The notes: generated by a model from the sequence alone, not told the origin. Counted from the stretch's first letter, positions 1 to 17,337 are shown. The stretch: DNA of 51,995 bases from Gammaproteobacteria bacterium (GCA_041623575.1 JBFJWO010000001.1:1-51995); one strand, 5' to 3'. Numbers and translations: made by a program.

Positions 1-53
1 GCGTTTTTTGTTGCTCGAGGCTTGCGGGCTGCGAAGGCCCGCGTCGTCTGCCC

Positions 54-2363
54 GTGACCCTGGCGCGCACGACCGCCGGGCGCCTGCCGCTGCGACGTTG
101 GATCAAGGGCGCCGCTGTCGCCTTCGCGATCGGCGTCGTCGGCGTCGCGTTCATGGCCACGACCCCCGGCGACGACTTCGAACGCCGCTTCGGCCTGAGC
201 TGGCTGTTCGAGGTCCGCGGCCCGATCGACGCGCCGGACGATGTCGTGGTCGTCGCGATCGATGCCCGGACCGGCAGCCATCTCGACCTGCCCTCACTGC
301 CAAGGGAGTGGCCACGGTCCATCCACGCCCGCCTGATCCGCAACCTCGAGCGCCTGGGCGCGTCCGTGGTCGTGCTCGACATGGATTTCCAGCGCTCGCG
401 CTCGAGCGCCGAGGACGCCGAACTCGGTGCGGCCATCGAGCGCTCGGGGCGGGTCGTCCTGTTCGAGTCACTCGACGGGAAACGCCTGCCGCTGGGCCAG
501 CTCGGCAACCGGGCGTCCAACGTCGACGAGCAGACCTACGGTTCGGTCTGGGTGGAGCAGTTGATCCCCCCCGTGCCCGTGCTCGCCGAGGCTGCCAACG
601 CGCTGGGTCCGTTTCCGCTGCCGAAACTCAACGAGGCCGTCTACCAGTACTGGGCGTTCAAGGCGACCACCGACGATGCCGCCACGATGCCCGCGGCAGC
701 GCTGCAGCTGCACGCCCTGGATCATTACGAAGTGTTCGCGCGGCTGATGCGAGAGGCGAACATCGCCGAGCTGAAGGATCTCCCGCCGGACGCGCGATCC
801 CTTACGAGGGCGCGCCCGGTGAGCGCGGTCATGCGTACCCTGCGCCGCGCTCTGAAGGACAATCCGCAGGCCGTGGCACGGCTCACCGAAGCGCTGCACG
901 CGACCCGCGACGAACCGCTGTCGCCACGACAGCGGCAACTGATCACCGCCCTCGTCAACCTCTACGCCGGGCCGGACACCCGCTACCTGAATTTCTACGG
1001 GCCGCCCGGCAGCGTGCGGACCCTTCCCTATCACAAGGTCATCGCGGCCGACGAGGCGGGTGACGAGAGCCTGCCCGATCTCGCCGGAAAGATCGTCTTC
1101 GTGGGCTATTCCGACCTCTACGATCCCGGGCAGCCGGATCGGTTCTACACGGTGTTCACCAACGAGGACGGAGTGGACCTGAGCGGCGTGGAGATCGCGG
1201 CCACCGCGCTCGCCAATCTGCTGGACGATCGTGAGCTGCGCCCACCCGACGCCCCGACCTCGATCGCGATCGTGTTGGCTTTCGGCAGTCTTGTCGGCGC
1301 CCTGGTCTACCTGTTGCCGGCGCTGGTTTCCGTTCCTCTCGCGCTCGTCCTGGGCGTGTCCTATGGCGCGGGCGTACAGTACCTGTTCAACGTGGCCGAC
1401 TCGTGGTTGCCGCTCGCCACCCCGCTGCTGCTGCAGTTGCCGCTGGCGCTGTTCCTGGGCCTGCTCGCGCAGTACCTGTTCGAACGACGACAGGAGCGTC
1501 AGTTGACGCAGGCGATCAGCTACTACCTGCCGGGCAGTATCGTCGCCGACCTTACCCGGGCCGGTGGCGTGGATCCGGTCGGTCTCAATCGCTCGGTGCA
1601 CGCCACCTGTCTCGCCACCGACATGGCCGGTTTCACGGGTATCGCCGAGACCATGTCGCCGGAGCACCTGGCCGCGTTCATGAACGAGTACTTCGAAGCG
1701 CTGTCGGCGCCCCTGATCGAACACGGCGTCGACGTCACCGAGTTCCGGGCCGATGCCATCATGTGCGCGTGGACCGGCCTGCAGTCCGACGAGCAACTGC
1801 GTCGCGACGCGATTCTCGCGGCACTCGGCACGGTCGATGCCATCAACCGGTTCAGCGCCGAGACCGGGCGCGGCAACCTGTCGCCGCGCATCGGCCTGGA
1901 AACCGGCGAGGTGTTCGTCGGCCACGCCGGTGGGGGCGGCCATTTCGTCTACAGTATCGTCGGCGCCTGCGCGAACACCGCTTCACGCATCGAAGGCCTG
2001 AACAAGCAGCTCGGCACCCAGTTGCTGGCGAGCGAGGCGGTGGTCGAGGGATTCGACTGGCTGCTGTGCAGGCCTCTGGGATCGTTCCTACCGATCGGCA
2101 ACCAGGCTCCCGTCGCGGTGGTCGAGATCCTGGCGTTGGAAACCGCGGCGTCCGCCGCGCAGCGCAGGCTCTGCCGGCGTTTCGCGCGATCACTGACGTT
2201 GCTGCGCAACGGGCGCCGCAGGCTCGCGGCGGCGCTGCTCGACAGGATTCTGGACGAATTTCCCGATGACGGGCCGGCGCGGTTCTACCGCGAACGCTGC
2301 AGCGCGCAATGGGAGGAACGCCTGCGCCGGGACGGCTTCGTCATTCGCCTGGAGACCAAGTGA
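54..2363 (+). CDS. CHASE2 extracytoplasmic sensor domain fused to a class III adenylate/guanylate cyclase
   Basis: GTG-start ORF of 769 aa. One N-terminal TM helix, then a CHASE2-like region (VVVVAIDARTGS, REWPRSIHARLIRNLERLGASVVVLDMDF, IVFVGYSD). About three TM helices at aa 400-480. C-terminal class III cyclase core (CLATDMAGFTG, EFRADAIMCAW, GLETGEVFVGHAG, GACANTASRIEG). Confidence 0.9.
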   Translation: MTLARTTAGRLPLRRWIKGAAVAFAIGVVGVAFMATTPGDDFERRFGLSWLFEVRGPIDAPDDVVVVAIDARTGSHLDLPSLPREWPRSIHARLIRNLERLGASVVVLDMDFQRSRSSAEDAELGAAIERSGRVVLFESLDGKRLPLGQLGNRASNVDEQTYGSVWVEQLIPPVPVLAEAANALGPFPLPKLNEAVYQYWAFKATTDDAATMPAAALQLHALDHYEVFARLMREANIAELKDLPPDARSLTRARPVSAVMRTLRRALKDNPQAVARLTEALHATRDEPLSPRQRQLITALVNLYAGPDTRYLNFYGPPGSVRTLPYHKVIAADEAGDESLPDLAGKIVFVGYSDLYDPGQPDRFYTVFTNEDGVDLSGVEIAATALANLLDDRELRPPDAPTSIAIVLAFGSLVGALVYLLPALVSVPLALVLGVSYGAGVQYLFNVADSWLPLATPLLLQLPLALFLGLLAQYLFERRQERQLTQAISYYLPGSIVADLTRAGGVDPVGLNRSVHATCLATDMAGFTGIAETMSPEHLAAFMNEYFEALSAPLIEHGVDVTEFRADAIMCAWTGLQSDEQLRRDAILAALGTVDAINRFSAETGRGNLSPRIGLETGEVFVGHAGGGGHFVYSIVGACANTASRIEGLNKQLGTQLLASEAVVEGFDWLLCRPLGSFLPIGNQAPVAVVEILALETAASAAQRRLCRRFARSLTLLRNGRRRLAAALLDRILDEFPDDGPARFYRERCSAQWEERLRRDGFVIRLETK

Positions 2364-2469
2364 GCGCGGCAGCGACGGCGCGTGGTCGACGTGGAGTGTG
2401 GATTCGCAGTGAGAAACCGCGTACATTAGCCCGGGGCCTCTGCTAACAACATAACGACGAGGCAAGTTA

Positions 2470-5400
2470 ATGGAGCGTGCGGGTCGTTCGCGACCGGATC
2501 GCGCCCCGAGCAGGTTCGACAGAACGAGAAGACTGGCACGGACCGGCGTCTTGCTCGCCCCGCTGTACGTGCTCGCCGGCGCCTGTATTTCACCGATCGC
2601 CCTTGCCGAGGACTGCGAGCCCGTGGTCGGCGGGCTGGTCTCCGTCGAAGGCAAGGTCGAGGTCCGGCGCGCCAGCGCCGAGCGCTGGGAAGAGGCCGAC
2701 CTGCAGGAGGTCCTCTGTCAGGGTGACTCGGTGCGTGTCGGCGTCCACAGCCGAGCCGCTGTGGCGCTTATCAACGACGCCGTGCTGAGGATCGATCAAC
2801 GCACGACGTTGCAGTTGGTCGACATCGTCGAGCAACAGGCCGAACCCTCGCTGATCGAGCTCATCTTCGGCGCGTTTCAGACCTTCTTTCGCCAACCCCG
2901 CCTGCTCAGGGTCCACACCCCGTACCTGAACGGTTCGATCGAAGGTACGGAGTTCGTGCTGCGGGTGGTGGACGAGCAGGCCGTGCTGACCGTGCTCGAA
3001 GGGCGCGTGCTGGCGGAAAACGAGCACGGCAGTATCAGCGTCGGGCGCAACCAATCGGTGGCCGCCGAGGCGGGCTCGGCGCCGCAACCCCGTGTCGTGG
3101 TGCGCCCGCGCGAGGCGGCCCAGTGGGCGCTCTATTACCCGCCGCTGCTGGCGGCGCCCGGGGGCGCGCAGCGCCTCGGTTCCGGGCCTCTCGCCGATGC
3201 CTTGCGCGCCAACGACACCCCCGCTGCCCTTGCCGCACTCGAGAACGTTCCGCAGGCCGGGCGCGATGCCGGGTTCTTCGTCCTGCGGGCGGCTCTGTTG
3301 TTGTCGGTCGGCCGCGTCGAGGACGCCCGCGCCGACATCGATCGAGCCCTCGCGCGCGACGCCGGGGCGGGCCTTGCGTTCGCGCTACGCGCTGTTGTCG
3401 CGGTCGTGCAGAACGACCTCGAGCAGGCGCTGGCCGACGGCAATCGGGCGGTCGCTTCCAGCCCCGATTCGGCGGCGGCGCACATCGCGCTCTCCTACGC
3501 CCAACAGGGTGCATTCCAGATCCCGATGGCACGCGAGACGCTGCTTCGCGCGGTGCAGCTGCCGAGCGCGGACGCCCTCGCGTGGACACGGCTAGCCGAA
3601 CTCGAGCTGATGCTCGGGTTTCGCGAACGCGCCGTCGAAGCCGCGGAAAAAGCGGCCTCGCTCGCGCCCGGGCTGGCGCGCACGCAGAGCACGTTGGGTT
3701 TCATAAGGCTCGCCGAGTTCCGCACCGGCGACGCGCAAGCGGCGTTCGAGCGGGCTGTCGCGCTTGACTCGGCCGATCCCCTGGCGCATCTCGGACTGGG
3801 TCTGGCCAGGATCGGCGCGGGTGATCTCGCGCGAGGTCGGGCGGCCATCGAGATCGCGGTCGGCCTGGATGCCTCGAGTGCCTTGCTCCGGGCCTACCTC
3901 GGCAAGGCGTATTTCGAAGAGAAGCGCCCGCCGCTCGACGCCGAGCAGTTCGCCATGGCCAGGGATCTCGACCCTTTCGATCCGACCGCTTTCCTCTATG
4001 ACGGCATCCGCAACCAGACCGAGAACCGGCCGGTGCAGGCGGCGCGCGACATCGACACGTCGATCCGACTCAACGACAACCGCGCCGCCTACCGCGGACG
4101 TCTGCTGCTCGACCAGGACCGTGCGGCGCGCGGCACCAGCCTCGCCCGGGTGCACAAAGACCTCGGTTTCACGCAGCTCGGCATCGACGAGTCGACGCAC
4201 TCCCTTGCACTCGACCCTTCGAACGCGTCCGCGCACCGATTCCTTTCCGACAGCTATCGGGGTATGAGCCGGTTCGAGATCGCACGGGTCAGCGAACTCT
4301 TTCAGGCGCAGCTGCTGCAGGACAGCAACATCAATCCCGTGCAACCCAGCATCTCGGAGAGCAACCTCAATATCGTCGCGCTGGGCGGACCCGCGAGCGC
4401 GGCTTTCAACGAGTTCACGCCGTTGTTCCAGCGCAACGATACCCAGTTCAACGTTACCGCGGTGGGCGGCAGCGAGGGCACCGCCGGCGCCGAAGCGGTC
4501 GTTTCAGGCGTTGCCGACGATTTCTCCTACAGCTTCGGCGCCTTCGCTTACGAGACCGACGGCTGGCGGGCGAACAACGACCTGGAGCAGGACGTCTACA
4601 ACGTCTACCTGCAGGGCGCGATCGGCGCGCGATCGTACTGGCAGGCAGAGCTGATGCATCGCCGATCGCTGAGCGGCGACCTCGTGTTCGGCTTCGACCC
4701 GGACGACCTCGTCGACGATCGGCGGATCGACACCAGTCGATCCAGCGCGCGTGTCGGGTTTCGCCATTCGCCGGACCCCTCGTCGGACCTGCTCGTCTCG
4801 GTCATCCACAGCGAGCGCGACGAAACGCGCAGCGAGACGGATCAGATCGATCCCACGACGCTTTTTGCGGCCGATACCGAGCTGGAGACCGACGGTTCGC
4901 TGGTCGAGATCCAGGCCATACGCAAGGCCGAAAACAGCAACTACATTCTGGGCGCGGCGTACAGCGAGTCGGAAACGACGGGCAGTGACGTGACGGTCAT
5001 CTCCGACGTCGTCATCGGGCCGCTGTTCGAGTTCGACGAGCCCATCGACGAATCGATCGAGCACTCGCGTGCCTACGCCTATGCGAACATCGGGCAACGG
5101 CGCGGGCTCATCTGGACGCTGGGCGCCAGCTACGACGACCTCACGGACGAGCCGATCGAACGATCCGGCTTCAATCCCAAGCTCGGCGTGCGCTGGCTCG
5201 TCGACGACGAAGTGCAGTTGCGCGCGGCGGCGTTTCAGGTGCTCAAGCCGTCGTTGATCAACAATCGCACCATCGAGCCGACCCAGGTCGCCGGTTTCAA
5301 CCAGTTGTTCGACGATGCGACCGGGACCGAGGCGCGTACCCGCGGTATCGGAATCGACGTCGGGTCCGCGACGGACGTGGCGTGGGGGGCGGAGGCGACC

Positions 5401-5934
5401 TGGCGCGATCTCGACGTCCCGGTGGTGCTGGTGACCGAGGACGGCAAGGAGGAGGCGGGCGGCATCGAGCAGGACGAAGAACACCACCGGCTCTATCTCT
5501 ACCTGGCGGCGGGCGAGCAGGTCGCGCTCAGCGCGGAACTGGCCTACGACCGTTTCCGTGAGCCCTCGGCGAGCGCGGACGCGTTTCGCCCGGTGCCGGC
5601 CGAGGTCACCACCACCAGCGTGCCGCTGGGCGTGAGCTACTTTCGCCCGAACGGTCTGTTCGCGAGCCTGCGCGTTACCTATGTCGAGCAGCGGGTCGAG
5701 CGCGCGGCGGACGCGGTGTTCGCACAGGGCAAGGACAGTTTCTCCCTGGTCGACGTGGCGGTCGGATACCGCTTTGCGCAGCGCCGCGGTATCGCGAGCC
5801 TGGGCATCAAGAACCTGACCGACGAGGAATTCGAGTTCCTCGATGACAGTTTTCGCGAATTCAGCGAGGATGCGACCACCGGGCCGTACGCCCCCGAGCA
5901 GATGGTGCTCGGTCGCATTACGCTGAGTTTCTAG
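2470..5934 (+). CDS. Exported FecR-domain / TPR-repeat / C-terminal outer-membrane beta-barrel fusion protein
   Basis: ORF of 1154 aa with a signal-like N-terminus (RRLARTGVLLAPLYVLAGACISPIALA). FecR-type domain (VEGKVEVRRASAERWEEA..GDSVRVG..AAVALINDAVLRIDQRTTLQL..GTEFVLRV..QWALYYPP). Long Ala/Leu-rich TPR-like array at aa ~260-600. The C-terminal ~550 aa show alternating beta-strand patterning, a TonB-dependent-receptor-like tail (LGIKNLTDEEFEF) and a terminal Phe (GRITLSF). Confidence 0.8.
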   Translation: MERAGRSRPDRAPSRFDRTRRLARTGVLLAPLYVLAGACISPIALAEDCEPVVGGLVSVEGKVEVRRASAERWEEADLQEVLCQGDSVRVGVHSRAAVALINDAVLRIDQRTTLQLVDIVEQQAEPSLIELIFGAFQTFFRQPRLLRVHTPYLNGSIEGTEFVLRVVDEQAVLTVLEGRVLAENEHGSISVGRNQSVAAEAGSAPQPRVVVRPREAAQWALYYPPLLAAPGGAQRLGSGPLADALRANDTPAALAALENVPQAGRDAGFFVLRAALLLSVGRVEDARADIDRALARDAGAGLAFALRAVVAVVQNDLEQALADGNRAVASSPDSAAAHIALSYAQQGAFQIPMARETLLRAVQLPSADALAWTRLAELELMLGFRERAVEAAEKAASLAPGLARTQSTLGFIRLAEFRTGDAQAAFERAVALDSADPLAHLGLGLARIGAGDLARGRAAIEIAVGLDASSALLRAYLGKAYFEEKRPPLDAEQFAMARDLDPFDPTAFLYDGIRNQTENRPVQAARDIDTSIRLNDNRAAYRGRLLLDQDRAARGTSLARVHKDLGFTQLGIDESTHSLALDPSNASAHRFLSDSYRGMSRFEIARVSELFQAQLLQDSNINPVQPSISESNLNIVALGGPASAAFNEFTPLFQRNDTQFNVTAVGGSEGTAGAEAVVSGVADDFSYSFGAFAYETDGWRANNDLEQDVYNVYLQGAIGARSYWQAELMHRRSLSGDLVFGFDPDDLVDDRRIDTSRSSARVGFRHSPDPSSDLLVSVIHSERDETRSETDQIDPTTLFAADTELETDGSLVEIQAIRKAENSNYILGAAYSESETTGSDVTVISDVVIGPLFEFDEPIDESIEHSRAYAYANIGQRRGLIWTLGASYDDLTDEPIERSGFNPKLGVRWLVDDEVQLRAAAFQVLKPSLINNRTIEPTQVAGFNQLFDDATGTEARTRGIGIDVGSATDVAWGAEATWRDLDVPVVLVTEDGKEEAGGIEQDEEHHRLYLYLAAGEQVALSAELAYDRFREPSASADAFRPVPAEVTTTSVPLGVSYFRPNGLFASLRVTYVEQRVERAADAVFAQGKDSFSLVDVAVGYRFAQRRGIASLGIKNLTDEEFEFLDDSFREFSEDATTGPYAPEQMVLGRITLSF

Positions 5935-5957
5935 CTCGATGTGGAGGAGTACGACTC

Positions 5958-6797
5958 ATGACTACAAGAACAACGTATACCGGTGCCCTGCTGTGTTTCG
6001 CCCCGCTGGCGTTTGGCCTCGCGCTGCCGGCGAACGCGGACTGCATCGACAGCGATCCGCCGGCGCTCGCGGTCATGTCGATCGATGCCAACAACAGTTG
6101 TTCCGACATCAACGGTTACGGCGGGTGTTTCATCAACGACGGGATCGGCAGTTGCTCGTTCAGCAGCGGTGGCAAATCGTTCACCGTCGACAGCACGCAG
6201 GCGGCTGACGGGCGGGTGCTGTGGAGCGTGCGCGAGGGCAGCGATCTCGGCGTCAAGGTGATGGTCGCCAACGGCGGCGCGCAGGGCAAGAACAACTGTA
6301 GCTACACCTACGCTTTCGATACGTTCTCGGGCCAGGCCGGCGACCTCAAGCCCAACGGCAGCATCCAGAACATCACCGGGGCGTTCTTCTGCACCGACGG
6401 CTCGTTCGCGGCGCCGCCGCCCCCGCCGCCGGTCGCCGAGAACCTGCCCCTGTGCCAGGACCCGATCTCGCAGCCTGACGTCGGGTTTCTCGACGAGACC
6501 GGCATCCGCTGCCCCGCGCCCGATCCGGCGACCGGGCTGGTGCCGCCGGTGGTCGTGTGCAACCTCGAGAAAGACAAGCCCGACTGGGGCGCGACCGACG
6601 GATCGGGGCTGTGCTGTCAGTGCGGGATTCCCGAGGGAACCCAGACCTCGTGCTTCGTGACCCCCGACTCGCCCGAGTGCACGCGGGAGATGACGGTCGA
6701 CCCCACCCAGGCCGTCGAGTTGATGTTCTTCAGGGCCGACGGCGACCCGTGCACCTGGAAGCGTACGTCGCGGGGATGGGAGCAGATCTGCTGGTAG
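5958..6797 (+). CDS. Secreted cysteine-rich protein of unknown function
   Basis: GGAGGA RBS about 8 nt upstream of the ATG, 24 nt after the previous stop. Signal peptide (ALLCFAPLAFGLALPANA/DC). About 16 Cys in the mature part, a PPPPPP linker, and a C-terminal CCQC cluster. Codon usage matches the neighbours. Confidence 0.7.
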   Translation: MTTRTTYTGALLCFAPLAFGLALPANADCIDSDPPALAVMSIDANNSCSDINGYGGCFINDGIGSCSFSSGGKSFTVDSTQAADGRVLWSVREGSDLGVKVMVANGGAQGKNNCSYTYAFDTFSGQAGDLKPNGSIQNITGAFFCTDGSFAAPPPPPPVAENLPLCQDPISQPDVGFLDETGIRCPAPDPATGLVPPVVVCNLEKDKPDWGATDGSGLCCQCGIPEGTQTSCFVTPDSPECTREMTVDPTQAVELMFFRADGDPCTWKRTSRGWEQICW

Positions 6798-6866
6798 TTC
6801 GTTTTCCCGGATGGCGGTCAGCCCGGGCGCACAGGCGCGCGGGCCGGCCGGTTCGTCCGGCTCGGA

Positions 6867-8150
6867 TCAGGGGTAGTCGCGCTGGCTCTCGCCGGTGTAC
6901 AGCTGCCGCGGGCGGCCGATACGCAGTTCCGGGTCCTGCATCATCTCCATCCAGTGCGCGATCCATCCGACCGTGCGCGCCATCGCGAAAATCACCGTGA
7001 ACATGCTGAGCGGGATGCCCATCGCGCGCAGGATCACGCCCGAGTAGAAATCGACGTTCGGGTAGAGCTTGCGCTCGATGAAGTAGTCGTCCTCGAGCGC
7101 CACCTGCTCGAGCTTGCGTGCCAGCTCGAACAGCGGCTGGTTCTCCGCACCCAGTTCGTCGAGCAGGCCGTTGGCGACCTGGCGGATGATGCGCGCGCGC
7201 GGGTCGTAGTTCTTGTACACCCGGTGGCCGAATCCCATCAGCCGGAAAGTGTCGTTCTTGTCCTTGGCACGCGCGATGTACTTGTCCAGCGGTTCGCCCG
7301 ACGCCAGCATGTTCTCGAGCATGCGGATCACCGCCTCGTTGGCACCGCCGTGCGAGGGGCCCCACAGCGAGGCGATGCCGGCGGCGATGCTGGCGAACGG
7401 GTTGGCACCCGAGCTGCTCGCCAGGCGTACGGTCGAGGTGCTGGCGTTCTGCTCGTGGTCGGCGTGCAGGATGAGGATGATCTCAAGCGCGCGCACGAAA
7501 GTCGGGTTCGACTGGTAGCTCTCCGCGGGCACGGCGAACATCATGCGCAGGAAGTTCTCCACGTAGCCGAGCGCGTTCAGCGGGTAGATGAACGGCTGCC
7601 CCAGCGAGTACTTGTAGCTGTCGGCGGCGATGGTCGGCATCTTGGCGATCAGGCGGTGCGCGGAGATCTTGCGGTGTTCCGGGTTGGTGATGTCGGTGGA
7701 GTCGTGATAGAAGGCCGACAACGCCCCCACCGTGCTCACCAGGATGGCCATGGGGTGGGCGTCGTGACGAAACCCCTCGTAAAAGCGACGCACGCCCTCG
7801 TGGACCATGGTGTGGGTGGAAATGGTGCGCTCGAAATCCTCTTTTTCCTTCGGGTTCGGCAACTCGCCGTAGAGCAACAGATAACACACTTCCAGGTAGC
7901 TGCTCTTCTCGGCGAGCTGTTCGATCGGGTAGCCGCGGTAGAGCAGGATGCCCTGATCGCCGTCGATGTAGGTGATGGCGCTGCTGCAGCTCGCGGTGGC
8001 GACGAACCCCGGGTCGTAAGTGAAGTAGCCCAGCTCCGGGTTGAGGCGGCGAATGTCGAAACAGGGATCGCCGTGGGTGCCTTCACGCACGGGCAACTGG
8101 ATCTTCTTGCCCGTGGTGTCATCGATCACCGTGACGGTCTTGTCAGTCAT
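6867..8150 (-). CDS. gltA: Citrate synthase (type II, hexameric Gram-negative type)
   Basis: Full-length 427 aa with an unmistakable GltA sequence ([82 protein letters not shown]). Confidence 0.97.
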
Positions 8151-10178: not shown

Positions 10179-11612
10179 ATGCTCTGGTTGTGCCTGCATT
10201 TCCCCCTGTTGCCGCTGGAGGTGCTGGCGCGCGCCGGGCAGGCCGGCCCGGCAGTGGTGAGCGCCGAGAGCGGCGGGCGCGAACGGGTAGAGGTCTGCAA
10301 CGAGGCCGCCGCCCGCCTCGGGGTGTGCCCGGGCCTGCGCATGAGTTCGGTCTGGGCACTGGCGCCGGAGTCGACGCACTACCCGCGTAACAGTGCGCGT
10401 GAGGCGCGAGCCCTGACCCGCCTGGCCGCCTGGTGCGGCCAGTTCAGCGACTTCGTCAGCCTGCGCGCGCCCGATGCGGTGTTGCTGGAGGTGCGGGGCA
10501 GTCTGAGGCTGTTCGGCGGGTTGGCGCGGCTGCTGGCGCTGCTGGACGGGGCGATCGCGGAACTGGGCTACACCGCGCAGCGGGGCGTGGCACCGACCCC
10601 GCTGGCGGCCAGCCTGCTGGCGCGTGCCGGGGGCGGGATCGCCAGCGGCACGGGCTGGGAGGGGCAACTGGCGAAGATCCCGCTCGACCGACTGGAACAG
10701 CCGCCCGCCGTGCTCGAGGCATTGCAGGAAATGGGGATCGGTACCGTCGGCGCCTGTCGTCGCCTGCCGCGCTCCGGGCTGGCGCAGCGTTTCGGTCCCT
10801 CGCTGCTGCAGTACCTCGATCGCCTGTGCGGGCTCGCCGCCCACCCGGTAGCGCGCTTCGAGGCGCCGGCCCGTTATGCCGAGCGGATTGCGCTGCCGGC
10901 CGAGAGCACCTCCGTGCAGGCGCTGGGGTTCGCCTTGCGGCGGCTGATTTTCGAGTTCTGCGGCATCCTCACCGGGCACGCCTCCGGCGTGCAGACCTTC
11001 GAGGTGGAACTGGTCCACGAACGCGTGGCCGCGACCCTGCTCGGGTTCGCCCTGGTATCGCCCAGCCGCGACCCGGCGCACCTGCTGATGCTGGTGCGTG
11101 AGAAGCTCGAACGCACCACGCTGGACGCGCCGGTGGTCGAGGTCGGGCTGCGCGCCGGGCGCTTCGAGTCGCTGCTGGCGGCGAGCGAAGACCTGTTCGA
11201 CGCACGCGGCGCGGCCCACGACGGCCTGTTCCTCGATCGCCTGCGCGTACGCCTCGGCGGCGAGGCCGTGGGCAGTGTGCGCTGTTTCGCCGAGCACCGC
11301 CCGGAGTACGCCTGGGGCAAGGCCGACCCGGATGCCTCGCGCACCGCGCAGGTCCCCGCTTACCCGGTCCGCCTGGAGCGACCCTTGTGGCTGCTGTCGC
11401 AACCTCTCGCGCTGGCCACCCGCGACGGGCTGCCCTGCTACGAAGGCGAGCTGGTCCTCTACGACGGCCCGGAGCGCATCGAGAGCGGGTGGTGGGACGG
11501 GCGCGACGTGACCCGCGACTACTTTCTCGCCGGCAACGCGCAGGGTGCGAGTTTCTGGGTGTTCCAGGAACTGCGCCGGCGCGAATGGTTCCTGCACGGG
11601 ATCTTTGCCTGA
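10179..11612 (+). CDS. imuB: ImuB, Y-family DNA polymerase-like protein of the mutagenesis cassette
   Basis: 477 aa. Canonical ImuB start (MLWLCLHFPLLPLEVL). Sits immediately upstream of dnaE2. Confidence 0.85.
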   Translation: MLWLCLHFPLLPLEVLARAGQAGPAVVSAESGGRERVEVCNEAAARLGVCPGLRMSSVWALAPESTHYPRNSAREARALTRLAAWCGQFSDFVSLRAPDAVLLEVRGSLRLFGGLARLLALLDGAIAELGYTAQRGVAPTPLAASLLARAGGGIASGTGWEGQLAKIPLDRLEQPPAVLEALQEMGIGTVGACRRLPRSGLAQRFGPSLLQYLDRLCGLAAHPVARFEAPARYAERIALPAESTSVQALGFALRRLIFEFCGILTGHASGVQTFEVELVHERVAATLLGFALVSPSRDPAHLLMLVREKLERTTLDAPVVEVGLRAGRFESLLAASEDLFDARGAAHDGLFLDRLRVRLGGEAVGSVRCFAEHRPEYAWGKADPDASRTAQVPAYPVRLERPLWLLSQPLALATRDGLPCYEGELVLYDGPERIESGWWDGRDVTRDYFLAGNAQGASFWVFQELRRREWFLHGIFA

Positions 11613-11628
11613 CCTTGCCCCGGCCGCG

Positions 11629-14600
11629 ATGGAACTCCCGGACTACGCCGAGCTGCACGCCGTTTCGAACTTCACCTTCCTGCGTGGCGCCTCGCACCCC
11701 GAGGAACTGGTGAAGCGCGCCGGTGCGCTCGGCTACCGGGCGTTCGCGCTCACCGACGAATGCTCGCTGGCGGGTATAGTGCGCGCGCACACCGCGGCGC
11801 GCGACTGCGGCCTGCACCTGATCGTCGGCACCGAGCTGGTGTTCGAGCCCGGACTGCGGCTGGTGTTGCTGGCGGTCAATCGCCACGGCTACGGGCGGAT
11901 AGCGTCGCTCATCACACGTGCCCGGCGCGCGGCCGCCAAGGGCGCTTATCGCCTGTGCCGCGAGGACCTGTGCAATGCCCCCGGAGAGCTGGCCGATTGC
12001 CTGGTCCTGTGGCTGCCCGGCGATCCCGCCGACGTCGCCACCGGGCGCTGGCTCGCGCAGGCCTTTGGCGGGCGTGTGTGGCTCGCCGTGGAGCTGACGC
12101 GCGACGGCACGGAGCGCCGGCGCCTGGCCGTGCTCACCCGTCTCGGCGGGAAATGCTCGCTGCCGCTGGTGGCGGCCGGCGACGTGCACATGCACCGCCG
12201 CGGCCGGCGTGCCGTGCAGGACACGCTGACGGCGATCCGCCTCAAGTCCACGGTGGCGGCGGCCGGCCTCGCGTTGCACGCCAACGGCGAGCGTCACCTG
12301 CGCGCCCGCGATTACCTTGCCCGGCTCTACCCACCGGAGCTGCTGGCGGAGACCGTGCGCGTGGCCGCCCGTTGTACGTTCTCGCTCGAGGAGTTGCGCT
12401 ACGAGTATCCCGCCGAGCTGGTGCCCGCCGGCAAGACCCCCGGCGGCTGGTTGCGGGAGTTGACCCTGGCCGGCGCCCGCCGCCGCTGGCCCGGAGGTGT
12501 GCCGCCGCGGGTCGAGGCGCAGCTGCAGCACGAACTGGCGCTGATCGGCGAGCTGGCTTACGAGCCCTATTTCCTGACTGTGCACGACCTCGTGGCCTTC
12601 GCCCGCGCGCACGACATCCTCTGCCAGGGCCGCGGCTCGGCGGCCAACTCGGCGGTGTGTTACTGCCTCGGGATCACCGAGGTCGACCCCTCGCGCATGA
12701 GCCTGCTGTTCGAGCGGTTCGTGTCGCGCGAGCGCAACGAGCCTCCCGACATCGACGTGGATTTCGAGCACGCCCGGCGCGAGGAAGTCATCCAGTACGT
12801 CTATCGCAAGTACGGGCGCGAGCGCGCTGCCCTGGCTGCCACGGTGATCACCTACCGCCTGCGCAGCGCCGTGCGTGACACCGGCAAGGCGCTGGGCCTG
12901 TCGCTGGAGCAGGTCGACCGCCTGGCCAAGAACCTGGCCTGGTGGGACGGGCGCCGGGTCGACGAGGAGCGCCTGCGCGAGTGCGGGCTGGACCCGGGCA
13001 GCCCGCTGGTGCAGCGGGTGGTGAGCCTCGCCACCCAGCTGGTCGGCTTCCCGCGCCACCTCTCGCAGCACGTCGGCGGTTTCGTGATCTCCCGCGGCCC
13101 GTTGAGCGAGCTGGTGCCGATCGAAAACGCCGCCATGCCCGAGCGCACCGTCATCCAGTGGGACAAGGACGACCTCGACGCGCTCGGCCTGCTGAAAGTC
13201 GACTGCCTGGCGCTCGGCATGCTGAACGCCATCCACAAGGCCTTCGACCTGCTCGGCGAAGTGCGCGGGCAGGCGTACAGCCTGGCGAGCATCCCGCCCG
13301 AGGACCCGCAGGTGTACGCCATGATCCAGAAAGCCGACACGGTGGGCGTGTTCCAGATCGAGTCGCGGGCGCAGATGTCGATGTTGCCGCGGCTCAGGCC
13401 GGAGAACTTCTACGACCTCGTGATCGAAGTGGCCATCGTGCGTCCCGGCCCCATCCAGGGCGACATGGTGCATCCCTACCTGCGCCGCCGCCAGGGCCTG
13501 GAGCCCGTCGACTACCCCAGCGAGGAGGTCCGCGAGGTCCTGGAGCGGACCCTGGGCGTGCCGATCTTCCAGGAGCAGGTGATCAAGCTGGCGATGGTCG
13601 CGGCCGGCTTCAGCCCCGGCGAGGCCGACCGGCTGCGCCGATCCATGGCGGCCTGGCGGCGCAACGGCGAGCTTGCGCAATTCGAGCAGCGCCTCATCGA
13701 CGGCATGCGCCGGCGCGGCTACGGGGTCGAGTTCGCCGAGCGGATCTTCCGCCAGATCCAGGGGTTCGGCGAGTACGGTTTTCCCGAGTCGCACGCCGCC
13801 AGCTTCGCGCTGCTGGTGTACGTCTCGGCCTGGCTGAAGTGCCACGAGCCGGCGGCCTTCACCTGTGCGCTGCTCAATGCCCAGCCCATGGGGTTCTATG
13901 CCCCGGCGCAACTGGTGCAGGACGCGCGCCGTCACGGCGTCGAGGTGCTCGCCGTGGACGTCACTCACAGTCGCTGGGAGAGCAGCCTGGAGCCGCGTGG
14001 TGGAGCCCAACCGGCGTTGCGCCTGGGGCTGGACCGGGTCAAGGGACTGTCGCGGGAGGCCGGCGAGCGGGTCTTGCGGGCCCGCTCCGGCGCGCCGTTT
14101 CGCGACCTGAACGATCTCGCGGCGCGCGCCGGTCTGCGCCGCAACGACCTGGCCGCGCTGGCCAATGCCGATGCTTTCTCCGCGCTCTCCGGCCACCGCC
14201 ACCAGGCGCGCTGGGAGCTGGCGGGGGTGGAGCCGCCCGCGGGGCTGTTGCCCACGCCGGCACCGGGTGGCGAGGCACCGGTGGCCTTACGCCTGCCGAG
14301 CGAGGGCGAGGAGGTGGCCGCGGACTACGCCCATCTCGGCCTGACCTTGCGGCGCCACCCGTTGGCGCTGCTGCGCCCGCGCTTCGACAGGGTCCACACG
14401 GCCGCGGGGCTCTGGGATCTCGCTGACGGCGCGCGCGCCGAGACCGTGGGGCTGGTCACCTGTCGCCAGCGCCCGGGTACCGCCACCGGCGTATTGTTCC
14501 TGACGCTCGAGGACGAGACCGGGGTGATCAACGTGATCGTGTGGAACCGGGTCGCCGAGCGTTACCGGCGGGCGGTGCTGGCCGCGAGCCTGCTCGGCGT

Positions 14601-14712
14601 GCGCGGGCACGTTCAGCGCGAAGGGGACGTGTTGCACGTGGTCGCACGCCATCTCCGGGACCACACCGCGGAGCTCGGCGGCCTCACCGCCGCCTCGCGG
14701 GATTTTCACTGA
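11629..14712 (+). CDS. dnaE2: Error-prone DNA polymerase III alpha-like subunit DnaE2 (ImuC)
   Basis: An in-frame ATG at 11629 gives the canonical DnaE2 start (MELPDYAELHAVSNFTFLRGASHPEEL). PHP and Pol III alpha core motifs are present (GRGSAANSAVCYCLGIT, DIDVDFE, FQIESRAQ). The tracked ORF start at 11545 overlaps imuB and is probably an artefactual extension. Confidence 0.93.
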   Translation: MELPDYAELHAVSNFTFLRGASHPEELVKRAGALGYRAFALTDECSLAGIVRAHTAARDCGLHLIVGTELVFEPGLRLVLLAVNRHGYGRIASLITRARRAAAKGAYRLCREDLCNAPGELADCLVLWLPGDPADVATGRWLAQAFGGRVWLAVELTRDGTERRRLAVLTRLGGKCSLPLVAAGDVHMHRRGRRAVQDTLTAIRLKSTVAAAGLALHANGERHLRARDYLARLYPPELLAETVRVAARCTFSLEELRYEYPAELVPAGKTPGGWLRELTLAGARRRWPGGVPPRVEAQLQHELALIGELAYEPYFLTVHDLVAFARAHDILCQGRGSAANSAVCYCLGITEVDPSRMSLLFERFVSRERNEPPDIDVDFEHARREEVIQYVYRKYGRERAALAATVITYRLRSAVRDTGKALGLSLEQVDRLAKNLAWWDGRRVDEERLRECGLDPGSPLVQRVVSLATQLVGFPRHLSQHVGGFVISRGPLSELVPIENAAMPERTVIQWDKDDLDALGLLKVDCLALGMLNAIHKAFDLLGEVRGQAYSLASIPPEDPQVYAMIQKADTVGVFQIESRAQMSMLPRLRPENFYDLVIEVAIVRPGPIQGDMVHPYLRRRQGLEPVDYPSEEVREVLERTLGVPIFQEQVIKLAMVAAGFSPGEADRLRRSMAAWRRNGELAQFEQRLIDGMRRRGYGVEFAERIFRQIQGFGEYGFPESHAASFALLVYVSAWLKCHEPAAFTCALLNAQPMGFYAPAQLVQDARRHGVEVLAVDVTHSRWESSLEPRGGAQPALRLGLDRVKGLSREAGERVLRARSGAPFRDLNDLAARAGLRRNDLAALANADAFSALSGHRHQARWELAGVEPPAGLLPTPAPGGEAPVALRLPSEGEEVAADYAHLGLTLRRHPLALLRPRFDRVHTAAGLWDLADGARAETVGLVTCRQRPGTATGVLFLTLEDETGVINVIVWNRVAERYRRAVLAASLLGVRGHVQREGDVLHVVARHLRDHTAELGGLTAASRDFH

Positions 14713-15914
14713 GCGCCGTGAAACTCGATGGCGATGAGGGTCACGTCGTCGCCGTTCTCGACGCCGCCGCAGAAACCGCCCAGCGCCTCGCGCAGGCTGG
14801 CCACCAGCTCCCCCACCGCCAGCTCGCGCTGCGCGGCGAGGAACTCGTGCAGGCGCTCCTCGCCGAAGTGCTCGCCGCCGCGGTTCTCCCACTCCAAAAT
14901 GCCGTCGGTATACATGAACACCTTGTCCCCGCGCGCCAGACGATAGCCGTACTCGTCGAAGTGGTTGGCGGTGTTCAGGATACCGAGCGGCAGGTTCTTG
15001 CTTCGCAGTATCACCAGCGCCCCGCCGTCGGCCGGGGCAACGACGAGCGGGGGGTGTCCGCCGGCGCTCATCGTGAGCGCGCCGCGCGTGTCGATCTGCA
15101 GTGCCATGCCGGTCATGAAATGCCCGCCCGGGATGGCGGGTTTGAGCACGGCGTCCAGGCGCCGCAGGACTTCGCAGGGCGACACGGACTTGCCGATGTG
15201 CGCGATCCCCATGCTGGCCATCACCGTGATGAACGCCGAGGCGATGCCGTGCCCCGTCGCGTCGCCGAGGAAGACCTCCTGCCCGCCGCCCGGGCGCTCG
15301 CCGAAGTGGTAGTAGTCGCCGGACACGAGCCCGCAGGGCTGGATCCACACCGCCGCGCTGAGGTGGTCGGGGCACGGCGGCTTGGCCAGCATCTCGTGCT
15401 GAACCTCGGCGGCGAAACGCAGGTCGCTCTCGAGGATCTGCTTCTGTTGCATCAGCGTGCGTTGCAGCGCCTCCAGCGCCTGTTGCCGGCGACTGGCCTC
15501 GGCGTGGTAGCGCACCCGTGCATGCAGCTCGACGGCGTCGGGAAACTTGACCAGGTAGTCCGACACGCCCTCGGCGAAGCAGCGCGCCTTCTCCTGTGCC
15601 GAATCGACGCTCGAGAGCATGATCACCGGCGCCCCCGCGAACTCCTCGCTCTCGCGCAGGTGTTTGACCAGGCCGAGGCCGTGGCAGGCGTCCATGCGCA
15701 CGTCGACGAGGAACACGTCGGGGCGGAACTCGCGCGCGCAGGCGAGTGCCCGCATCGGGTGCACGCAGCCCATCAGCTCGATCTGCGCCTGGTCCTCGAA
15801 CAGGTCGGCGATGAGGTCCAGCGCGTCCTGGTCGTCGTCGACGTGCAGCACGCGAATGGCATCGAGCACGACCGGCTGCTCGAGCTTCGATAGCGGCGCG
15901 GCGAGCTGGTTCAT
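14706..15914 (-). CDS. Response regulator receiver fused to a PP2C/SpoIIE-type Ser/Thr phosphatase (RsbU-like)
   Basis: Receiver domain (RVLHVDDDQDALDLI..PDVFLVDVRMD..VIMLSS..DYLVKF), then a SpoIIE/PP2C core (SGDYYHF..FLGDATGHGIASA..GGHPP..MYTDGILE). Start placed at the internal ATG 15914 (MNQLAAPL); the upstream 49 codons are Arg/Pro-rich. Confidence 0.85.
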   Translation of the reverse strand: MNQLAAPLSKLEQPVVLDAIRVLHVDDDQDALDLIADLFEDQAQIELMGCVHPMRALACAREFRPDVFLVDVRMDACHGLGLVKHLRESEEFAGAPVIMLSSVDSAQEKARCFAEGVSDYLVKFPDAVELHARVRYHAEASRRQQALEALQRTLMQQKQILESDLRFAAEVQHEMLAKPPCPDHLSAAVWIQPCGLVSGDYYHFGERPGGGQEVFLGDATGHGIASAFITVMASMGIAHIGKSVSPCEVLRRLDAVLKPAIPGGHFMTGMALQIDTRGALTMSAGGHPPLVVAPADGGALVILRSKNLPLGILNTANHFDEYGYRLARGDKVFMYTDGILEWENRGGEHFGEERLHEFLAAQRELAVGELVASLREALGGFCGGVENGDDVTLIAIEFHGAQ

Positions 15915-16026
15915 AAGACTCTGCGACGGGTGCTGATGGCAGGTTATCGGGCGCCGCGCGGGCATCTTTAGGGTGTCCGGCCCCTGGCCGGCCGGCGGCG
16001 GCGCACGCCGGTACGGACCGTCGCGG

Positions 16027-17337
16027 CTACGCTTCCCGCAGGTCGTCGACGACCTCGCCATGCAGCAGGTCGTGCCCGTCGTGGCGCAGATCGGTGGGCA
16101 GGATCCGGTTCGTGAGCGGCGCCGCCGCGGCGTCTACCTCCGTACAGACCCGCAACATGTTGGGCGTGTAGCCGAGGTAACGCCGGCGCCCGTTGTGGCG
16201 CAGTTCGCCTTCGCCTTCCCACAGCACCGGCAGGCGCCGACCGGCGAATCGCGCCAGCGTCGTGCGCGTGCAGCGCTGGGCGAGCTCATGCAGGGCCCGG
16301 CTGCGCTCGCGCTTGACCGCCCCGTCCACCTGCTCGGGAAGACGCGCCGCCTTGGTGCCCTCGCGTGCCGAGAAGCTGAACACGTGGATGTGCCCGAAGC
16401 AGATCTCCCCGGCGAAGGCGAGCGTCGTCGCCCATTCCTCGGCGCTCTCGCCGGGAAAGCCCACGATGATGTCCGTGGTGACGTTGAAATCCGCCACCGC
16501 CGAGCGCGCCCGCTCGACGAGCGCGCGGAATTCGCCGGTCTTGCAACGCCGGGCCATGCGCCTCAGCACGCTGTCGCAGCCGCTCTGCAGGGGCAGGTGC
16601 ATGTGCGGCATGAGCCGGGTGTCGGCGAACAGGTCGAAAAAGTCGGCCGGCAGGTCCCAGGGCTCCACCGACGCGAGGCGCAGGCGCTCCACGCCGGTGT
16701 CGTCGAGCAGCGCGCGGATCAAGGTGGCGAGGCTCTCGCCGGTGTCGCTGCCGTAGCCGCCGACGTGCACCCCCGTCAACACGACTTCACGCACACCGCC
16801 GGCAACCAGCGCGTTCACTTGCGCCACCACTTCGCCGATCGCGCGGCTGCGCTCCTCGCCGCGTGCCACCGTGACGATGCAGTAGGTGCAGCGGTACCGG
16901 CAACCGTCCTGCACCTTGACGAACGCGCGCTGGCGCCCCCGCGCGAACAGTGCCGCTTCCCCCGGTTCGGTGGCCGCCGCCGACAGCGCCGCCGGCGCCA
17001 GCTCGCGCCCGACGATAGCGACCAGGTCGTCCTTGTCCGCGTTGCCGATCACCAGGTCGACGCCGAGGCGCTCGGCCGCGGCCCCGCCCCCGAGAGAGGC
17101 GTAGCAGCCGGTCATCACCAGCTTGGCGCGCGGGTTGTCGCGATGCAGGCGCCTGATGCTCTGGCGCGACTTGCGTTCCGCCTCGCGGGTGACCGCGCAG
17201 CTGTTGAACACCATCAGGTCGGCGCGCAGGGGATCGGTGGTCAGGCGGTGGCCGGCGTCGCGAAAGCGGGTGCCCCAGGATTCGAGTTCCGCCTCGTTGA
17301 GGCGACAGCCGATGGCCTTGAGATACACTTGCAGCAT
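16027..17337 (-). CDS. mtaB: Radical-SAM methylthiotransferase, MtaB-like (tRNA t6A37 methylthiolation)
   Basis: 436 aa. UPF0004 N-terminal Cys triad (GCRLNEAE, NSCAVT, TGCYA). Radical SAM CxxxCxxC motif (CRYRCTYCIV). TRAM-like C-terminus. Confidence 0.88.
   Translation of the reverse strand: MLQVYLKAIGCRLNEAELESWGTRFRDAGHRLTTDPLRADLMVFNSCAVTREAERKSRQSIRRLHRDNPRAKLVMTGCYASLGGGAAAERLGVDLVIGNADKDDLVAIVGRELAPAALSAAATEPGEAALFARGRQRAFVKVQDGCRYRCTYCIVTVARGEERSRAIGEVVAQVNALVAGGVREVVLTGVHVGGYGSDTGESLATLIRALLDDTGVERLRLASVEPWDLPADFFDLFADTRLMPHMHLPLQSGCDSVLRRMARRCKTGEFRALVERARSAVADFNVTTDIIVGFPGESAEEWATTLAFAGEICFGHIHVFSFSAREGTKAARLPEQVDGAVKRERSRALHELAQRCTRTTLARFAGRRLPVLWEGEGELRHNGRRRYLGYTPNMLRVCTEVDAAAAPLTNRILPTDLRHDGHDLLHGEVVDDLREA

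Follow-up and report, generated by a model that had tools for sequence, protein, structure and literature searches.

An NsrA-type outer-membrane protein as the probable signal receptor of an adjacent CHASE2 cyclase in an uncultured bacterium

The locus and its genes

The DNA analysed here (the window) is the 51,995-nucleotide stretch GCA_041623575.1 JBFJWO010000001.1:1-51995, assigned to a gammaproteobacterium. The subject of this study is a gene near its start that encodes a 1154-residue protein in which a FecR domain, a helical arm of the tetratricopeptide repeat (TPR) type and an outer-membrane β-barrel are joined in one chain. It is the middle gene of a unit of three on one strand, preceded by the gene for a CHASE2 class III nucleotide cyclase and followed by that for a secreted Cys-rich protein with a terminal two-Cys hairpin (Table 1). 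The barrel gene probably encodes a member of the NsrA family of outer-membrane signal receptors that serves the neighbouring cyclase, the explanation that best accounts for the domain anatomy, the homology to NsrA of Sinorhizobium meliloti and the synteny with the cyclase and hairpin genes.

The barrel protein is encoded by a single unbroken open reading frame (ORF), with the Shine-Dalgarno sequence GAGG 7 nt 5′ of its ATG. The cyclase gene ends at 2363, directly upstream of it; the start of the cyclase is uncertain, with a GTG at 54 in a frame that is open to the contig edge. A gap of 23 nt separates the barrel gene from the third gene, which has its own GGAGGA ribosome-binding site. The unit is taken to consist of these three genes because the convergent citrate synthase gene comes after the third. 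A promoter and terminator scan of positions 1-7200 gave nothing over shuffled expectation, and so the operon structure is read only from spacing and ribosome-binding sites.

Table 1. Positions of the genes, domains and residues described in the text, counted from the first letter of the window.
Feature	Position	Strand	Basis or remark
CHASE2 + class III nucleotide cyclase, inner-membrane partner	54..2363	+	Pfam: CHASE2 E 4.4e-27, Guanylate_cyc E 1.3e-10
Glu codon, cyclase purine-specifying position	1740..1742	+	motif TEFRADAIM
Ser codon, second purine-specifying position of cyclase	1953-1955	+	motif YSIVGACANTASRIE
NsrA-type outer-membrane protein gene	2470..5934	+	1154 aa plus stop; Pfam, homologue search, hhalign, AF2, Foldseek
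Signal peptide, aa 1-46	2470..2607	+	read from sequence; probable cleavage after ALA
Periplasmic FecR-domain β-sandwich, aa 50-208	2617..3093	+	invariant Cys49 and Cys83; Pfam, AF2 strands, invariant columns
TPR-like helical arm, aa 217-616	3118..4317	+	24 helices; Pfam TPR families, PDB TPR matches, AF2
Linker, aa 617-657, at usual plug position	4318..4440	+	QDSNINPVQPS...FTPLFQRN; AF2, conservation
TonB-receptor-type β-barrel, aa 658-1154	4441..5931	+	22 strands, plug-less, acidic outer parts; PF00593, AF2, Foldseek
Strand 13/14 loop, aa 926-953	5245..5328	+	contains TIEPTQVAGFNQLFDD; among best-conserved family segments, invariant residues nearby
Third gene, 279-aa secreted Cys-rich protein	5958..6797	+	two-Cys hairpin end GDPCTWKRTSRGWEQICW
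Citrate synthase	6867-8150	-	convergent with three-gene unit
imuB-like (IMS family) and dnaE2-type DNA polymerase III alpha genes	10179-14712		downstream of and unrelated to the three-gene module
Response-regulator/SpoIIE phosphatase	14706-16061	-	

Domain organization of the barrel protein

The N-terminal 46 residues consist of a basic stretch, a hydrophobic helix and the sequence ALA, after which the mature chain would begin with ED; as read from the sequence, they are a Sec signal peptide. This region is not conserved in the family (over 74 members, as for the conservation of segments given below) and appears as an isolated helix (residues 16-39) of low confidence in an AlphaFold2 (AF2) model built on 30 homologues. 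The FecR domain follows directly. Pfam places FecR (PF04773) at residues 86-180 (E 4.9e-9, 36.9 bits against a cut-off of 24), and a rescan of the excised segment improved the match to E 2.2e-10. Several TPR families match within residues 270-520, and TonB_dep_Rec_b-barrel (PF00593) covers residues 686-1116 (E 2.2e-11, 44.7 bits against a cut-off of 27). The siderophore-receptor model TIGR01783 gives a weak match (E 4e-6) far under its cut-off. The chain ends in ...GRITLSF, the terminus that the first-pass annotation of this locus had singled out as an outer-membrane signature, and its terminal Phe is at least 90% conserved among the 30 homologues.

Conservation is at its maximum at the junction of the TPR arm and the barrel. 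The part of the arm nearest the barrel (residues 521-616) is the best-conserved region, and the best-kept segments are residues 535-554, residues 601-620 and, within the strand 13/14 loop, residues 934-953. That loop as a whole has a mean conservation of 0.77, with 54% of its columns at least 90% conserved. The linker between arm and barrel is modelled with a predicted local distance difference test score (pLDDT) below 50, yet has a mean column conservation of 0.69.

The first-pass annotation held that the FecR domain stands immediately behind the signal peptide and has no anti-sigma module, and in this Pfam, the sequence and the AF2 model agree. No cytoplasmic anti-sigma domain was matched by Pfam, and just the 46 residues of the signal peptide precede the mature part. 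The resemblance to the FecA-FecR-FecI and PupR systems lies in the periplasmic FecR domain and in the general scheme, in which an event at the outer membrane reaches a signalling protein of the inner membrane. In those systems, however, FecR contacts the signalling domain of a separate transducer, whereas in the window protein FecR domain and barrel share one covalent chain, and no transmembrane helix follows the signal peptide. The earlier suggestion that FecR domain and outer-membrane barrel form a single polypeptide, distinct from a canonical FecR regulator, is thus borne out by Pfam, AF2 and Foldseek. No Sigma70_r2 match, and so no extracytoplasmic function (ECF) sigma factor, was found on the 52-kb contig, which ends just upstream of the cyclase gene. 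A FecIR-type anti-sigma reading was rejected on these grounds, since the protein lacks both an anti-sigma domain and a membrane anchor and the contig has no ECF sigma gene. At first pass the locus was framed against the FecA/FecR/FecI system; the probable partner is instead the adjacent CHASE2 class III cyclase, which that reading did not mention.

Model structure and the origin of the barrel

The AF2 model (mean pLDDT 74.5, with values of 80-95 in the barrel) consists of a β-sandwich (residues 50-208), 24 helices (217-616) and 22 strands (658-1153). The TPR-like helices and the C-terminal barrel that had been proposed for this protein are therefore both present, although the lengths first given to them are not upheld: the arm occupies about 400 residues rather than about 340, and the barrel about 497 rather than about 550. 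The proposed check of barrel against soluble fold came out in favour of a 22-strand barrel that Foldseek finds similar to TonB-dependent transporters. In a comparison with the PDB, the top 50 matches are all TonB-dependent transporters or models thereof (E 7e-15 to 8e-12, 11-15% identity), headed by FpvA, FecA, FhuE and FhuA, with E ~1e-14 for FpvA, FecA and FhuA. A search of PDB sequences with the family profile returned generic TPR proteins only and no solved whole-protein relative.

These matches raise the question of whether the protein might take up a nutrient as a genuine TonB-dependent transporter or transducer with an odd N-terminal extension. The PF00593 match above cut-off, the weak TIGR01783 match, the FpvA- and FecA-like 22-strand fold and the terminal Phe are all features shared with such proteins, and one relative has TonB and ExbD genes at a distance of 8-10 kb. 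Yet Plug (PF07715) was not matched in the whole protein at E<=0.1, and residues 510-687 scanned against Pfam at E<=10 gave neither Plug nor any other family. The region that precedes the barrel is modelled as helices and linker and not as a plug fold. Pfam likewise found no STN signalling domain in the protein, and what is conserved next to the barrel gene is a cyclase gene rather than genes for TonB-ExbBD or for ABC-type uptake. A TonB box was not recognized, although this motif is short and degenerate and no formal search was made for it; a plug-less barrel would in any case offer it no usual place. The absence of the plug, the domain that defines TonB-dependent receptors, largely refutes a transporter function, which is very improbable. 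The barrel is clearly of the TonB-dependent-transporter lineage, but the protein is no such transporter.

Family size, distribution and integrity of the reading frame

A search of a collection of 5.8 billion proteins yielded, from the candidates that were scored, at least 1676 significant homologues. The top 120 have lengths of 1027-1169 residues, 50-62% identity and 92-99% query coverage, and the names attached to homologues at source are 'FecR domain-containing protein', 'tetratricopeptide repeat protein' and 'TonB-dependent receptor domain-containing protein'. In contigs that represent one genome per species, relatives are encoded in at least 521 stretches, from Gamma-, Alpha- and Betaproteobacteria, Desulfobacterota, Nitrospirota and Binatia. 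Isolates that carry them include Nitrosospira multiformis, N. briensis, Methyloversatilis, Hyphomicrobium and Microbaculum; Thiocapsa also has a family member. The nearest homologues, at no more than 62% identity, are from metagenome-assembled genomes of Arenicellales and other gammaproteobacteria. The first-pass annotation had called this architecture unusual. With homologues in such numbers, relatives in hundreds of species genomes and a characterized member in NsrA, it is common.

The source genome is itself metagenome-assembled and fragmented (4.7 Mb, 571 contigs, 76% complete), which gives some room to the notion that an assembly or frameshift error has fused a FecR/TPR gene to a barrel gene. 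The family data leave this hardly credible. More than 1600 homologues of the same length come from independent assemblies and isolates, those of 1076-1169 residues covering 95-99% of the protein, and conservation peaks exactly over the junction at which a fusion would have occurred. Moreover, the same genome encodes two further NsrA-type paralogues with the same layout and 35% identity, on contigs C299 (188-3415) and C141 (1-2328). The frameshift that the first reading had named as a possible refutation was accordingly rejected, and the ORF is not two joined genes.

Homology to NsrA

The CHASE2 adenylate cyclases CyaK, CyaD1 and CyaD2 need NsrA, their co-receptor in the outer membrane, to perceive signals (PMC7529298, PMC13001267). 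Genetic work in S. meliloti has shown that it is required, together with CyaK, to perceive nodule signal 1 and the ribosomal protein uL2 (PMC7529298, PMC13001267). The system of NsrA (SMb20775) also includes the regulator Clr (Garnerone et al. 2018, J Bacteriol 200:e00019-18, via PMC13001267; Sorroche et al. 2020, PMC7529298). On the S. meliloti plasmid pSymB, cyaK is immediately preceded by a gene for a 1190-residue 'FecR domain-containing protein', which is identified as NsrA because cyaK adjoins it. Its Pfam layout is FecR, TPRs and then a weak match to an outer-membrane barrel.

By BLASTP the window protein matches NsrA at E 2e-16 and 25% identity over residues 15-535, with a second match (E 6e-4) over the last strands. 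Comparison by hhalign of the 30-member profile with NsrA gives a probability of 99.7% and E 4.9e-26 over 983 columns, with residues 34-1141 aligned to 28-1190 of NsrA. The full-length relation required this profile comparison; tblastn against the plasmids caught the FecR part of NsrA only. The profile alignment thus places the window protein in the NsrA family, as a distant member related over its whole length. The likeness extends beyond the alignment, in that both are single chains of approximately 1150-1190 residues with a signal peptide, FecR domain, TPRs and C-terminal outer-membrane barrel, and both genes adjoin that of a CHASE2 class III cyclase. The two loci differ in order, since the cyclase gene lies upstream in the window and downstream of nsrA in S. 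meliloti. They also differ in host: that of the window is uncultured, probably gammaproteobacterial and no plant symbiont, and hence its natural signal cannot be a nodule cue.

The architecture is therefore already known from the NsrA family, which is widespread but poorly understood and has been studied in a single plant symbiont. What looked like a FecR protein fused to a TonB receptor is a recognizable unit of NsrA-type receptor and CHASE2 cyclase, and such proteins should not be annotated as 'TonB-dependent receptor' or 'iron regulator FecR'.

A DUF5706-domain gene lies directly upstream of nsrA on pSymB, in divergent orientation (L005:6313-6858, in the numbering L001 onwards used here for related loci). 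DUF5706 is presumably linked to cyclic-nucleotide-activated membrane effectors.

The CHASE2 cyclase and its conservation as a neighbour

A homologous CHASE2 cyclase is encoded in the flanks of 55 of the 80 related loci, and the pairing holds for 26 of the 33 relatives whose flanks extend 5 kb or more in each direction. Most frequent (34 loci) is the order seen in the window, in which the cyclase gene precedes the barrel gene on the same strand; in L001, L002 and L003, too, a CHASE2 cyclase adjoins the NsrA-type gene. This adjacency is far beyond chance, for which a rough estimate is 2%, since CHASE2 proteins occur just five times in the 4.7-Mb genome (C8 twice, C171, C1 and C393). The contigs concerned are too short to pair these CHASE2 proteins with the NsrA-type paralogues.

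The cyclase keeps the catalytic Asp, Asp, Asn and Arg residues. Its purine-specifying positions hold Glu and Ser, and the resulting signature D-E-D-S-N-R is common to 19 partner cyclases of close relatives. The cyclases of remoter relatives have Asp or Asn with Arg at these positions, and CyaK, aligned by eye, has Lys and Ser, a further difference from the S. meliloti system. Adenylate cyclases carry Lys and Asp/Thr at the purine-specifying positions, and in class III cyclases a Glu there suggests use of GTP. The Glu/Ser pair therefore suggests that the product of the window cyclase may be cGMP, a cAMP/cGMP mixture or another nucleotide.

Genes for secreted FecR proteins have been described beside those of CHASE2 receptors elsewhere. 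The 'BiofilmReg' operon of Burkholderia encodes a LysM-FecR protein and a CHASE2 histidine kinase (PMC5192318), and a cluster in Campylobacterota encodes a CHASE2 adenylate cyclase, a FecR outer-membrane protein, a TPR protein and a phosphodiesterase (PMC9239204). Compared by these descriptions, both resemble the window in the pairing, and the Campylobacterota output is also a cyclase. The Burkholderia FecR protein differs in having LysM in place of TPRs and a barrel, and a kinase as output, and the Campylobacterota cluster is described with its TPRs on a protein of their own. NsrA-type loci point to the possibility that CHASE2 may listen to an outer-membrane protein and not to a small molecule.

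The genome encodes about 18 cyclic nucleotide monophosphate (cNMP)-binding proteins, none of them in the window. Of L002, L003 and L004, whose flanks were examined, two encode a group of several cNMP-binding proteins no more than 10 kb away from the NsrA-type gene. They include glutaminase-cNMP and rhodanese-cNMP fusions, possible readers of the cyclase product.

The third gene

The product of the third gene has no Pfam or NCBIfam match. Homologues lie downstream of the barrel gene at L006:4945-5883, L007:13373-14452, L042:8963-9898 and L072:2107-2994. When ORFs that start within 450 nt after the barrel gene are counted, a terminus of the form C-x(5-14)-C-x(0-4) is found in the downstream ORF at 43 of 74 loci, compared with 4.4% of 5710 other ORFs. 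Outside this motif the proteins are highly variable (71-380 residues, with divergent sequences). The paralogue on contig C299 has a downstream hairpin ORF of its own. The AF2 model of the window's third protein is poor (pLDDT 44.5, from a 5-sequence alignment), though the terminal hairpin is nonetheless predicted. The system probably includes this secreted protein as its third component.

The same linkage could be turned into a different account of the barrel, in which it serves mainly as partner or translocon of the hairpin protein. The latter would be exported or surface-displayed through the barrel, or would plug it in trans, in the manner of LptD/LptE or Slam. The TPR arm would then be a docking or chaperone module, and cyclase signalling would play at most a secondary part. 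Surface lipoproteins are handled by proteins that combine TPRs and a barrel, Slam being an example, and a barrel with no plug of its own, followed so often by a hairpin gene (the window and the C299 paralogue included), would suit such a role. However, the CHASE2 cyclase is conserved as a neighbour at least as much as the hairpin gene, and the FecR domain has no known secretion role. NsrA of S. meliloti signals without such a neighbour (PMC7529298). We regard the translocon account as unlikely.

Proposed mechanism of signalling

As a receptor of the NsrA type, the protein would be exported by the Sec pathway and freed of its signal peptide, after which the 22-strand plug-less barrel would insert in the outer membrane. 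Its acidic parts would face outward, and the TPR arm of about 400 residues would extend with the FecR domain into the periplasm. At the surface, the barrel would most likely bind a basic protein or peptide, by analogy with the proposal made for NsrA and uL2. Binding could be relayed through the conserved barrel-proximal helices and the linker to the TPR-FecR arm. The arm would in turn contact CHASE2, the periplasmic domain of the inner-membrane cyclase whose gene lies directly upstream. Such contact would raise cyclic-nucleotide synthesis, and some of the cNMP-binding proteins of the genome may be the readers.

The charge of the barrel fits this scheme. The estimated external segments contain 67 Asp/Glu and 19 Lys/Arg (family median 53 acidic and 23 basic), counts that were compared within the family only and in which the split into external and periplasmic loops presumes the topology of a TonB-dependent transporter. 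The 57 acidic loop residues of NsrA were invoked by Sorroche et al. to explain the binding of the basic uL2 (PMC7529298). By analogy, the acidic exterior predicted for the window barrel would match that property.

Several points weigh against assigning a receptor function of this kind to the window protein, the presumed topology behind the charge counts among them. Identity to NsrA is only about 25%, with the barrel halves weakly aligned by BLASTP, so that functional equivalence is extrapolated over a large distance. The genetic evidence that a cyclase needs such a receptor for its signal response comes from S. meliloti only, outside this subfamily, and the papers cited here report no direct contact between FecR and CHASE2, even for S. 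meliloti. Seven of the 33 relatives with long flanks (for example those of Nitrosospira, L058 and L063, and L004) have no CHASE2 cyclase within 10 kb. Finally, no hairpin-protein gene adjoins nsrA in S. meliloti, whereas one follows the barrel gene in the window, and the third component is therefore not universal.

A broader function for the whole family is also conceivable. uL2 signal activity has been found in bacterial and yeast extracts, and the NsrA family could be a general bacterial sensor of outside protein and not a device of symbiosis. In free-living bacteria such as the one studied here, its acidic plug-less barrel would detect basic proteins from lysed cells (e.g. free uL2), the Cys-hairpin protein would act as a plug in trans or as a co-receptor, and the Glu/Ser cyclase would respond with cGMP. 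This proposal is speculative and on balance improbable. If true, it would make the three genes a pathway of three parts that spans the envelope and signals danger or the lysis of kin.

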